Source: Holosporales bacterium
Lineage (GTDB): Bacteria > Pseudomonadota > Alphaproteobacteria > RUG11792
Assembly (NCBI GenBank): GCA_031269095.1
Contig: JAIRWI010000030.1
Span: forward strand, 27,212-91,211
Length of the DNA stretch: 64,000 nucleotides
Direction: 5' to 3'
The position numbers and the translations under genes were made by a program. Below are positions 16,707 through 58,420 of the stretch, piece after piece; position 1 is the stretch's first letter; every line of letters begins with the position of its first letter. Under the pieces are notes generated by a model. The model was not told the DNA's origin. It was given only the letters and a program-made list of their open reading frames with translations, and did no database searches.

Positions 16707-16813
16707 TATACTCGCTCTAGTTGACTTTAGTATTAACCAAAATTCCCAAATCCCCCACGATTCTGGGAAAGACACCTTGAAAAATTATCTTTTCACTGAC
16801 TAGCGTGAGTATA
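16707..16813 (-). repeat. R1 MITE-like unit, subfamily R1a, near-perfect 16-bp TIRs
   Basis: tatactcgctctagttgac...gattctgggaaagacaccttgaaaaattatcttttcactgactagcgtgagtata. Ends 16 nt before the acs stop codon. Confidence 0.8.
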
Positions 16814-16828
16814 AAATCATATCCAAAA

Positions 16829-18751
16829 TCACGATGATGTTTGTAAAATTTTTCTGATTGCTTCGATACATTCGGGATTTTGCAGTGAACTCGTGTCTCC
16901 AAGATTTTTATAATTTTTTGCTGCAATTTTCCGAAGAATCCTCCTCATAATTTTTCCAGAGCGAGTTTTAGGTAAATCATCTACAAAAGTAACGATATCT
17001 GGCTTAGTTATGGGGCTAATCACTGTCTTTACCCTATTAATTATACGTTTTCGTGCTTCTTCTTCAGTAATTTTAGAATTTTTCTTAAGGACGATGAAGG
17101 CGTATATTCCTTCCCCCTTAAGATCGTGCGGATATCCAACTATAGAGACTTCTGAAACCACGTCTTCAAGGTATATTACATCTTCTATCTCGACAGCGCT
17201 TACCCTGTGTCCAGAAACGTTTAAAACATCGTCTACTCTACCGGTTATCCATATAAATCCATCACTGTCATAATATGCTTCATCTCCAGTGCAATAGATC
17301 CCCGGACATCTTGAATAATAAATATTATACATTCCCTCTGGCTCCGCTTGTATTCTTTTGAGCATTCCTGGCATACTATCTTTTATAAAAAGTGCCCCTG
17401 TTTTCATTGCTTCTATTACATCGATATTGTCTTCATCTTTAATAATAAAATTACACCCTAAAAATGGCCGACCTATATGTCCATAAGTCTTCATATCATC
17501 CATATTACAAAGAGGTGCTGTTGGGACCCCTCCCAATTCCGTTTGACCCCACATATTGACCACAATTGTTTTGTTATTCCCAAATTTCTCAAAATACCAA
17601 GACCAAACCTCTTTATTTAAAATTTCTCCAAAAACTCCTGCAACTTTTAGAGTATCTCGGGTTGTATCTTGAAAAACCTCAGGATCACTATACTGCATCA
17701 TGGCACGAAGAGCTGTTGGAGCGGTATTGAAAGAGGTAACCTTATGTTTGTCTATTATCTTCGAAAAAATAGACGGATCTGGGTACGTTGGAACTCCTTC
17801 ATAGATTAAGGTAGTAATTCCATTACAGAGAGGAGCGTACATGGAGTAAGCATGCCCCCCCATCCATCCAATGTCTCCACTACACCAAAATATACTATCT
17901 TCATCTATATCAAAAAAATATTTATGAGTTAGTGACGAAAAGAGCAAAAATCCACCAGTTCCTTGAACGATTCCCTTGGGTTTACCGACAGAACCCGAGG
18001 TATGTAAAACAAAAAGATCATCATTAGAATCAGAATGAATAACTGGACAGTCATCATCCACAATGCTAGTTGAAATTTCAGAATAATCTATATCAAGTTC
18101 TTTATTGAAAGGTATATCGATATTTTGCTTTCTAAAAACAAGGGTTTTGATAGGCTGTCCCCCGTAAAGTTTTCTAACTTCATCTATATTATTTTTTAGA
18201 GGTATAACCTTTCCCCCTCTCCTATTAGCATCGCAAGTTATAACAAAATTTGATCCACAACTTTGCATGCGAAGCGCAATTGCACTTGGAGAAAATCCTG
18301 CAAAAACCGTTAAGTAAGGAATCCCGAGACGCGCGCATGCAAGACACGAATATATAGCTTCCTTAACCATTGGCATATATATCGTTACATAATTATCTCT
18401 ATCAAGCCCCAGTTTTTTTAAAACATTTGCAATTTTTATAACCTCTTTGTGAAATTCATTATAGGTTATCTTTTCGCAAACATTTATATCTTCACTTTGC
18501 CAAATAAGGGCAACTTTATCCGGATTTTTTTCGTAATGTCTGTCTACACAGTTATAGCAGGCATTTATTTTTCCGTCTGTAAACCACGAATTTCCGTCAT
18601 ATGAAATTGTAGGTTTTTTTATCCAGGAAAGTCTGTCGATTTGCGCCATCCAATATTCCTCTGGATATTTACTTGCATATTCATACAGCTCCCTATATAT
18701 ATTCTCATCCCGCCACGCATCTCTATGGGTTAAAAATTCTTTAGAAAGCAT
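16829..18751 (-). CDS. acs: acetyl-CoA synthetase (acetate--CoA ligase)
   Basis: 640 aa. Motifs LHTSGSVGKPKG, WGQTELGG, GDEAYYDSDGFIWITGRVDDVLNVSGHR and PKTRSGKIMRRILRKI. Confidence 0.93.
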   Translation of the reverse strand: MLSKEFLTHRDAWRDENIYRELYEYASKYPEEYWMAQIDRLSWIKKPTISYDGNSWFTDGKINACYNCVDRHYEKNPDKVALIWQSEDINVCEKITYNEFHKEVIKIANVLKKLGLDRDNYVTIYMPMVKEAIYSCLACARLGIPYLTVFAGFSPSAIALRMQSCGSNFVITCDANRRGGKVIPLKNNIDEVRKLYGGQPIKTLVFRKQNIDIPFNKELDIDYSEISTSIVDDDCPVIHSDSNDDLFVLHTSGSVGKPKGIVQGTGGFLLFSSLTHKYFFDIDEDSIFWCSGDIGWMGGHAYSMYAPLCNGITTLIYEGVPTYPDPSIFSKIIDKHKVTSFNTAPTALRAMMQYSDPEVFQDTTRDTLKVAGVFGEILNKEVWSWYFEKFGNNKTIVVNMWGQTELGGVPTAPLCNMDDMKTYGHIGRPFLGCNFIIKDEDNIDVIEAMKTGALFIKDSMPGMLKRIQAEPEGMYNIYYSRCPGIYCTGDEAYYDSDGFIWITGRVDDVLNVSGHRVSAVEIEDVIYLEDVVSEVSIVGYPHDLKGEGIYAFIVLKKNSKITEEEARKRIINRVKTVISPITKPDIVTFVDDLPKTRSGKIMRRILRKIAAKNYKNLGDTSSLQNPECIEAIRKILQTSS

Positions 18752-18853
18752 ATTTTTTCGTATTAGTTCTGTAAACTTGTTGGTAGTTTATACCAAAAAG
18801 TAAAAACCTGTAGTAAATTTTAGTTAGGCGAAAAAAAAATATAAAAAAAATAT

Positions 18854-56870: not shown

Positions 56871-56930
56871 AAAATTTGGTTTTTTATGTGTATTATTGGT
56901 TTGTAGCTTTTGCATTAATCATAAAACAGA

Positions 56931-58313
56931 ATGACCAAAAAAGTTGAAATAGACTCCAGAAACGTTCAGAAGGGGGATATTTTTGTCGCTATTCCATGTT
57001 CTAATTTTGATCGCAATGTGGAGGAGGCAATCCGAAATGGTGCTTCCATTATTGTATCAGAAAATAACAGTATAGGAGATTTACACACTACAGACGCCAG
57101 ATTAATTGCATCAAAACTAGCTGCATTTTGTTATAACGGTAACAATGAACAACGGATAAATAATTGTGTTGCAGTAACGGGAACTAATGGAAAGAGTTCT
57201 GTTGTACATTTTTTAGGAGAAATTTGGAAACATAATAACATAAACTCAGCTTGCCTTGGCACAAATGGAATGTATATAAATGGCATTAAAAATAACACTT
57301 CTACTAATTTAACAACCCCAGACTGTGTAACTCTTCATAAAATAATTTCATCCTTGAGTAGAGAGCATAACATAGAGTACTTTGCATTCGAAGCTTCAAG
57401 CCATGCGCTTGCTCAAAAAAGGCTACACAGTGTTAGTCTCAAAGTTGCAGCTTTCACTAATCTAGGTTCCGACCATCTTGATTACCATGAAACTAAGGAA
57501 GAATATTTTCTTGCTAAACAAAAAATCTTTACTGAAATTGGAGCAGATTATTCAGTTTTTTCGAAAGATGACCCATATGTTTTCAACACTCTTTTCAGTT
57601 TATCTCATAAAAACATCACGACTTTTGGATATAGTTCATTTAATGATATTTATCCAATAAATATTCAAAATTTAAATAATATGGATTTGTTTGATTTAAA
57701 CATAAAAGGCGAAATATATAAAAATATATTTATCAAAATGTTTGGCAAATTCCAAATACTTAATGTATTATGTGCTTGCTCAATAGCCCTGTCACTTGGT
57801 TTAAAAATATCTGATGTGGTCAACGTTTTGGATAAATTAACCCCACTCGAAGGAAGAATGGAACACGTCACATCATATAATGGTGCAGATATATATGTCG
57901 ATTATGCACATACAATAGAAGGATTCCGTAATTTGCTCTTAACTGTTAAATATATTTGTAGAGGGAGGCTTATTACTGTTTTTGGTTGTGGAGGGGATAG
58001 GGATAAAAGTAAACGCTCAGTTTTTGGAGAAATTGCTGGGGAAATAGCTAATATAAATATAATTACAGATGACAATCCAAGAAGCGAAGATCCAGGATAT
58101 ATTCGTAAAGAAATAATAAAAAACTGTAAGAATGTAGAGGAAATAGCTGATAGAAAAGAGGCTATAAAACATGCTATATCTTTGTTAGAAAATGGGGATA
58201 TTATGGTAGTTATAGGTAAAGGCCATGAAACTACCCAAATTTATAAGAAAAAAATTCTTTCTCACAATGACAAAGAGTTTGTATTAGATAGTATCCCCAA
58301 CTCCACTGGGTAA
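56931..58313 (+). CDS. murE: UDP-N-acetylmuramoyl-L-alanyl-D-glutamate--2,6-diaminopimelate ligase
   Basis: 460 aa. Motifs VTGTNGKSS, FEASSHAL and TDDNPRSEDP. DNPR is the meso-DAP-specific motif. Confidence 0.92.
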   Translation: MTKKVEIDSRNVQKGDIFVAIPCSNFDRNVEEAIRNGASIIVSENNSIGDLHTTDARLIASKLAAFCYNGNNEQRINNCVAVTGTNGKSSVVHFLGEIWKHNNINSACLGTNGMYINGIKNNTSTNLTTPDCVTLHKIISSLSREHNIEYFAFEASSHALAQKRLHSVSLKVAAFTNLGSDHLDYHETKEEYFLAKQKIFTEIGADYSVFSKDDPYVFNTLFSLSHKNITTFGYSSFNDIYPINIQNLNNMDLFDLNIKGEIYKNIFIKMFGKFQILNVLCACSIALSLGLKISDVVNVLDKLTPLEGRMEHVTSYNGADIYVDYAHTIEGFRNLLLTVKYICRGRLITVFGCGGDRDKSKRSVFGEIAGEIANINIITDDNPRSEDPGYIRKEIIKNCKNVEEIADRKEAIKHAISLLENGDIMVVIGKGHETTQIYKKKILSHNDKEFVLDSIPNSTG

Positions 58314-58314
58314 C

Positions 58315-58420
58315 TATACTCACTCCAGTTAGCGAAGAGATAATTTTTCAAAATCTATCCCAAGAATTATTGATGTTTTAGGTATATTTATCGATATCAA
58401 TTTTAAATAGAACAACTATA
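58315..58420 (+). repeat. R1 MITE-like unit, subfamily R1a, head at left
   Basis: tatactcactccagttagcgaagagataatttttcaaaatctatcccaagaattattgatgttttaggtatatttatcgatatcaattttaaatagaacaactata. Starts 2 nt after the murE stop. Confidence 0.8.

Follow-up and report, generated by a model that had tools for sequence, protein, structure and literature searches.

The R1 repeat of a Holosporales bacterium is enriched on the 3′ side of genes and depleted upstream of them

A 64,000-nucleotide stretch of contig JAIRWI010000030.1 from the Holosporales bacterium assembly GCA_031269095.1 (C42:27212-91211 in our contig numbering; this whole stretch is referred to as the window) carries numerous copies of R1, a short repeat bounded by terminal inverted repeats (TIRs). 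The assembly consists of 846,385 bases in 52 contigs with 34% G+C, and its Ffh protein is 64% identical to that of the metagenome-assembled genome 'uncultured Holosporaceae bacterium'. An initial annotation of the window had claimed that R1 units always lie 3′ of a gene, often within a few nucleotides (nt) of the stop codon, and that they avoid the promoter regions between divergent genes. Analysis of the window and of the whole genome demonstrated that the distribution of R1 is real and statistically strong but is an ordinary pattern, in which avoidance of the DNA upstream of genes is the dominant signal and proximity to stop codons is a modest extra.

Seventeen R1 units were called in the window by nhmmer against the whole genome, and the gene names murE, tsaE, asd, acs, ffh and infB were confirmed by NCBIfam. 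According to the open reading frames (ORFs), the stop codons of all six genes are where the initial annotation had placed them. The unit behind murE, which begins TATACTCACTCCAGTTAGC, occupies 58315..58421 on the minus strand (E 1.7e-23); it starts 1 nt past the murE stop at 58311-58313 and lies 156 nt before the mutL start. Behind tsaE, whose stop is at 40923-40925, the profile hidden Markov model (HMM) matches a degenerate unit at 40936..41024 on the plus strand (E 7e-9 genome-wide, 2.6e-12 on the segment), and the TIR-like end of this unit, TATGCTCAATTGG, starts at 40928, 2 nt past the stop. The unit at 16707..16813 (plus strand, E 8e-19) lies 15 nt off the acs stop at 16829-16831, and the unit at 54486..54584 (plus strand, E 5.5e-18) ends at 54584 or 54586, 14-16 nt from the ffh stop at 54601-54603. 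These placements agree with the initial annotation. The truncated units that it reported behind infB and asd fared less well: the first, at about 53995, is a marginal match (E 0.05 on the segment), and the second, at 42180, has no HMM match and resembles a TIR only to the eye. A full unit is instead found at 42245..42345 (plus strand, E 9.8e-18) in the asd/dnaB convergent spacer, 68 nt past the asd stop.

Two other convergent regions of the window are occupied by several units each. The infB/ffh spacer holds subfamily units at 54095..54196 (plus strand, E 2.5e-18) and 54259..54365 (minus strand, E 5.6e-19), and a diverged unit at 54395..54487 (minus strand, E 4.7e-6) abuts the unit next to ffh. 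The convergent spacer 28403-29397 holds units at 28744..28844 (minus strand, E 4.8e-21) and 29217..29322 (plus strand, E 1e-21), the latter abutted by a partial unit covering model positions 27-108 at 29141..29221 (minus strand, E 9.5e-9). Among the tandem spacers, 10091-10358 contains a unit at 10151..10259 (minus strand, E 2.5e-11, model 2-107) that is 60 nt past one stop and 99 nt before the next start, and 12293-13106 contains two units, at 12426..12530 (minus strand, E 1.9e-10) and 12684..12794 (plus strand, E 1.2e-21). The tandem spacer between the minus-strand genes acs and dapE contains the unit at 16503..16609 (plus strand, E 8e-25), and a subfamily unit is located at 36948..37054 (minus strand, E 5.6e-16) in the tandem spacer 36798-37167.

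The unit at 36058..36161 (minus strand, E 2.3e-21) is an exception to the stop-side rule and one of four start-proximal cases, as it lies 137 nt past a stop and 21 nt before the start of the longest ORF at 36183. Either the true start of this ORF is located further downstream or the unit represents a rare promoter-proximal insertion. The ORF itself begins with TTG at 36183, encodes 204 amino acids (aa) and has no NCBIfam match. Tandem direct repeats unrelated to R1 are also present within long ORFs of the window that encode repeat proteins, at 11661-11976 (period 93 nt), 26017-26623 (63 nt), 27296-27619 (54 nt) and 46209-46577 (123 nt).

The six divergent spacers that the initial annotation had listed as free of R1 are indeed free of it on the basis of ORFs and nhmmer, with boundaries at 5380..5494, 8394..8638, 25629..25716, 31950..32294, 45894..46076 and 55903..56285. 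Among the spacers of the window longer than 50 nt, all 3 convergent ones held R1, as did 7 of the 16 tandem and none of the 7 divergent ones (one-sided Fisher p = 0.017). Within the window alone, this bias is suggestive only.

The HMM was seeded with eight copies from the window and iterated by nhmmer across the whole assembly, and the number of non-overlapping units rose from 269 in the first round to 364 in the final round. These 364 units, 260 of them near full-length, are spread over most contigs and amount to 34.4 kb, or 4% of the genome. Units also lie less than 300 nt from many contig ends (for example C47:24-132, C48:24-135, C40:41-148, C21:183-288 and C22:183-289); therefore the assembly probably breaks at R1 clusters, and the count of 364 is a lower bound.

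An R1 unit is approximately 106 nt long and consists of two 19-nt TIRs, TATAGTTGTTCCAGTTAAC and GCTAACTGGAGCGAGTATA, separated by about 68 nt; TIR matches number 305 genome-wide. The units have 30% G+C and no coding capacity, with stops in all frames from both ends when the consensus is read directly. Among 87 isolated copies of full length, TA opens and closes the unit, with T and A at these positions in 97-100% of cases, and the copies revealed no direct repeat longer than TA and no flank motif. Flank composition is weakly palindromic, with few C at positions -3 to -1 and few G at positions +2 and +3. At C32:7961-8169, outside the window, a complete unit splits another at model position 67/68, and the host unit returns to normal length only if it is assumed that the TA was duplicated. 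R1 has all four hallmarks of a bacterial MITE (miniature inverted-repeat transposable element), namely a short non-coding body, TIRs, a target-site duplication and many dispersed copies. Because it is non-coding, TIR-bounded and TA-duplicating, it can be described as a MITE with the insertion habit of the IS630/Tc1-mariner elements.

No Rfam family was found on the R1 units. When the R1 consensus was compared with 40 relatives, 24 of them from the same family, no copies were detected apart from a single weak match of 31 nt, and a conserved 24-mer of R1 had no match in genome or metagenome contig collections. An exact look-up of the TsaE protein likewise yielded no further contig carrying an identical TsaE. 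R1 is a lineage-restricted and previously undescribed MITE family. Judged by its divergence, it is old, with a mean pairwise identity of 69% and a nearest-neighbour median of 86%.

The visible remnants of IS630-type (DDE_3) transposases in the assembly are one on C27, which starts at 2875 or 3075 and ends at 3377, and one at C51:7800-7901. The C27 remnant is frameshifted and cut off by the contig end. The visible ends of both remnants are unlike the R1 TIR, and no R1-like TIR was found upstream of the C27 copy. The genome has no match to the Y1/RAYT transposase domain (PF01797), and pairs of TIRs located 300-5000 nt apart enclose only ordinary genes and other R1 units. No autonomous IS630-family element with TIRs matching those of R1 was found in this assembly. 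The right end of the C27 remnant is lost at the contig end, and therefore the parent element may simply be absent from the assembly; we infer that the mobilising transposase was of the IS630 type. A small palindrome, TAGTAACCATGACTCC...GGAGTCATGGTTATC, precedes the C27 remnant and occurs nowhere else in the assembly, and the C51 fragment is about 300 nt away from an R1 unit.

Genome-wide positions were determined relative to 709 genes (80% coding) from an in-house ORF and codon-score caller. Of the 93 convergent spacers 59 carried R1, compared with 92 of the 469 tandem and 12 of the 93 divergent ones, and the difference between convergent and divergent spacers was highly significant (Fisher p = 8e-13). 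The p value ranged from 9e-13 to 3e-8 under stricter sets, which consisted of full-length units with E<1e-10, strong genes of at least 100 aa, or both. Expressed per kb of non-unit spacer, the density of units was 6.2 in convergent, 2.7 in tandem and 0.94 in divergent spacers. An effect of element age was discarded as the source of this bias since HMM scores were alike across the spacer classes (Kruskal p 0.36).

Distances within spacers pointed in the same direction. In tandem spacers, the median gap is 73 nt between the upstream stop and the R1 block and 156 nt between the block and the downstream start (Wilcoxon p = 1.4e-4). Compared with counts expected from uniform placement within each spacer, distances of 40 nt or less between a unit and a start are strongly depleted (4 of 116, with 20.7 expected; p = 2e-6), and distances of 5 nt or less between a unit and a stop are mildly enriched (20 of 210, with 10.8 expected; p = 0.006). 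The frequent placement within a few nt of stop codons asserted by the initial annotation therefore stands as a mild excess only, given that the stop-to-unit distance is broadly spread around a median of approximately 70 nt. Its statement that units avoid divergent promoter regions stands as a strong depletion that is not absolute: the 12 occupied divergent spacers contain 20 units, which sit mid-spacer at a median of 156 nt from either start. The statement that units always lie 3′ of a gene does not hold, in that it is trivial for tandem spacers, is contradicted by these 20 units, and is at odds with the window units at 36058-36161 and 36948-37054, both of which are nearer to the next start than to the stop. 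Its genome-wide form, an enrichment in 3′-flanking over 5′-flanking DNA, is borne out by the occupancy of the spacers.

The contacts between units and genes show the same asymmetry. For 355 of the 364 units, any overlap with a gene is below 3 nt, and the nine overlaps that do occur are all at the 3′ side of a gene or inside a short doubtful ORF, with none at a 5′ end. Two of the overlaps measure exactly 18 nt. In these cases, the ORFs C51:53678-54913 and C50:65255-65995 run into an R1 TIR, which supplies their last five codons and the stop (TAT ACT/GCT CGC/CGT TCC/TCT AGT TAG, giving ...Y(A/T)RSS*), so that the proteins end in ...YARSS* and ...YTRSS*, respectively. Insertions that hit a stop codon or the codons just before it are apparently tolerated because the TIR supplies a nearby stop, and part of the excess at zero distance can therefore be accounted for. 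As a separate observation, the full unit at C49:6440-6548 lies in the spacer next to the 3′ end of the RNase III gene (C49:6564-7178) and abuts a TAG stop, which is probably a coincidence.

We consider it likely that the positional bias of R1 results from selection against insertions upstream of genes, and selection rather than an unseen targeting mechanism would thus be what makes the bias. R1 is an old non-autonomous transposable element with a core of about 102 nt, 19-nt TIRs and a duplicated TA target. According to this proposal, it inserts at TA without a further detectable site requirement, also at the TA flanking existing copies, which produces end-to-end arrays; 23 end-to-end junctions between R1 units were counted. 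Insertions in coding sequences (CDS), or within roughly 60-150 nt upstream of starts where promoter, 5′ untranslated region (UTR) and ribosome-binding site are located, would harm expression and be lost, while insertions past stop codons would be nearly harmless and persist. Those in terminal codons or the stop codon could also survive, because in one frame the TIR brings a stop no more than 6 codons away. Convergent spacers, which have no upstream zone, would then fill, and divergent spacers, which have two, would remain nearly empty. The family is old (69% mean identity), and therefore this selective sieve would have had time to act.

The initial annotation had offered the removal of promoter insertions by selection as one of two explanations, and this explanation agrees with every test that was run, including the avoidance of the 40-60 nt before starts, the mid-spacer position of divergent units and the restriction of overlaps to 3′ sides. 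A model with one parameter, in which no insertion is tolerated within X nt upstream of a start, predicted 55.7 convergent, 91.5 tandem and 13.8 divergent occupied spacers at an X of about 150, compared with 58, 91 and 12 observed (chi-square 0.3). The supply of target sites was rejected as the cause of the bias. TA occurs 119 times per kb in divergent spacers, 98 times in convergent spacers and 87 times in CDS, and TA, TATA and WWTAWW are all commonest in divergent spacers, which is the opposite of the R1 distribution.

Several observations weigh against this explanation. Under uniform insertion, the convergent density implies, by rough arithmetic, some 10,000 insertion events that were nearly all purged, which is plausible but large. 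The approximately 2-fold excess at stop codons is not predicted by selection alone and needs the survival of terminal-codon insertions as an addition. The first unit past a stop is weakly skewed in orientation (86 vs 121, p = 0.018), although the orientation of units relative to the upstream gene in tandem spacers is unbiased (84 vs 94). In addition, the gene calls come from the in-house caller and not from a curated annotation, the 'native' (non-unit) spacer lengths on which normalisation was based may contain undetected decayed units, and the assembly yielded no autonomous element with R1-like ends.

It is also conceivable, but in our judgement unlikely, that the bias is made at insertion, with a transposase that prefers either the DNA behind genes, such as structural or protein-bound termination zones, or the ends of resident copies. 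The excess of units within 5 nt of stops and the weakly palindromic flanks are in keeping with such a preference, and other elements are reported to target REPs (PMC1525189). Clustering provides further support: an element end is involved in 68 of 70 abutting neighbour junctions, and clean nested insertion was found once only, at C32:7961-8169, which suggests preferred re-use of a flanking TA or TATA. Local self-targeting of R1 does seem real and accounts for arrays, which reach 9 units in one spacer. However, it leaves the 5′ avoidance unaccounted for, since it yields clustering and neither places the first copy behind a gene nor keeps copies away from starts. No flank motif is conserved beyond the TA, and the abundance of TA, TATA and WWTAWW in divergent spacers also speaks against this reading. 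Empty sites, reconstructed as 35 nt + TA + 35 nt, show no stronger folding than control TA sites and are less structured than convergent-spacer controls; targeting of hairpins or terminators is therefore unlikely, and terminator targeting by R1 was rejected on these grounds.

The other explanation in the initial annotation was that TIR-closed hairpins act as transcript 3′-end, terminator or mRNA-stabilising structures. If so, R1 would be kept behind genes since the transcribed hairpin serves as a 3′-end structure, whether by terminating transcription, by blocking 3′ exonucleases or as an RNase III processing site, a reading to which we give little credence. For REP, ERIC and Correia elements, such roles have been demonstrated or suggested, and co-transcribed repeats with an effect on mRNA stability are known from the literature (PMC3184786). 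R1 is co-located with gene 3′ ends, with 63% of convergent spacers occupied, and a TIR stem of 17-19 base pairs (bp) closes in 77 of 138 full copies in the forward (56%) and 59 of 138 in the reverse direction (43%). The rarity of intrinsic terminator motifs in 3′ regions would leave room for other 3′ structures, and RNase III is intact.

The folding itself is weak, however. Full copies have a mean minimum free energy of -16 kcal/mol in the forward and -18 kcal/mol in the reverse direction, which is about one standard deviation below mononucleotide shuffles (mean z -1.1 to -1.3). When six window units were folded in the same sense as their upstream gene and compared with dinucleotide shuffles, z was -0.23 (murE), -2.32 (acs), -0.20, +0.07, -1.26 and -0.89, so that the folding check suggested with the initial annotation came out at -1.26 or weaker for five of the six. 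A terminator scan of window positions 40000-59999 identified 13 sites with 10.1 expected, which is chance level, and no terminator-like site in this segment coincided with an R1 unit. Genome-wide, terminator-like motifs followed gene ends without a unit in 3.7% of cases and those with a unit in 6.7%; unit-bearing ends are not depleted of such motifs, and R1 units therefore do not replace terminators. The G+C-rich hairpin and U tract of an intrinsic (Rho-independent) terminator are not features of R1, given its variable flank, its weak folding and the absence of sites at the units in window positions 40000-59999. Rho is intact (C30:14057-15313), and termination in this symbiont is probably mostly Rho-dependent. 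The broad stop distances, the clusters of up to 9 units and the near absence of R1 from the 40 relatives also speak against a 3′-end function.

Some TIR positions co-vary (position 12, z 6.1), which might be taken as a sign of an RNA structure. Co-variation was nevertheless dropped as a test of RNA function, as recognition by a transposase at both ends combined with subfamilies gives the same pattern. In sum, the folding energies (z about -1) and the lack of terminator-like sites at the units scanned lent the hairpin function no support at the sequence level. In a more specific version, the R1 hairpins present in about 60% of convergent spacers of this genome, which has almost no canonical intrinsic terminators, have been co-opted as orientation-independent 3′-UTR structures, and as RNase III sites or roadblocks they could curb antisense read-through where genes converge. 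This version is improbable, though if it were true the spread of the element would have rebuilt 3′-end processing in the symbiont.

With selection against upstream insertions as the preferred explanation, R1 is of interest as a MITE family not described before, which accounts for about 4% of a reduced symbiont genome of the Holosporaceae type. The family has value for annotation as well, in that long spacers are mostly R1 arrays, some gene ends are encoded by a TIR, and contig breaks fall near R1 clusters. R1 would raise a new mechanistic question only if its units shape RNA 3′ ends.

Among known systems, REP/BIME and ERIC elements share with R1 a location at the 3′ ends of genes and in convergent spacers. 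A REP is a G+C-rich hairpin of 20-40 nt, and REPs are linked to RAYT transposases. In contrast, R1 is A+T-rich, TIR-bounded and TA-flanked and resides in a genome without a Y1 transposase, and is accordingly not of the REP/REPIN-RAYT type. Delihas 2011 (PMC3184786) described MITEs, ERIC and REP at gene 3′ ends, with REPs favouring convergent spacers, and both co-transcription and effects on mRNA stability are documented for REP/BIME and ERIC (PMC3184786).

R1 also resembles the Rickettsia palindromic elements (RPEs) in being a palindromic repeat in the range of 100-150 nt that has expanded in an obligately intracellular alphaproteobacterium. RPEs are found as in-frame insertions inside protein genes. 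R1 differs from them in this respect, as no unit lies inside a credible gene. RPEs are among the repeats reviewed in PMC3184786.

The Correia elements of Neisseria share with R1 the form of a TIR-bounded MITE of approximately 100-150 bp, a TA duplication and hundreds of gene-adjacent copies, and are often co-transcribed. Parts of promoters and an IHF site belong to the Correia sequence. RNase III cleaves Correia transcripts (PMC3184786). Promoter parts, IHF site and RNase III cutting are documented for Correia elements and not for R1; the median of 156 nt between R1 and downstream starts and the unbiased orientation of units in tandem spacers argue against a promoter role.

In the pneumococcal repeat RUP, as in R1, a length of about 106-107 nt is combined with TIRs, a TA target, no coding capacity, many intergenic copies and several subfamilies. 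RUP was reportedly presented by Oggioni and Claverys in 1999 as a 107-bp pneumococcal MITE, and is thought to be mobilised by IS630-Spn1. R1 is distinguished by its alphaproteobacterial symbiont host, by the lack of an identified autonomous insertion sequence (IS) with matching ends and by a load of 4% of an 846-kb genome, and no relation to RUP in sequence is expected. RUP is listed among the pneumococcal repeats in PMC3184786.

The distribution of R1 follows the same rule as that of full-size IS elements. In 116 genomes, Plague 2010 (PMC2942039) found IS elements over-represented between convergent genes and under-represented between divergent ones, and ascribed this to selection against disturbance of upstream regulatory DNA. 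With R1, the comparison extends to a MITE of 106 nt, which is present at much higher density and whose distances from starts and stops are resolved to the base. R1 thus provides a clean base-resolution case of the known rule that mobile DNA persists on the 3′ side of genes but not ahead of them.

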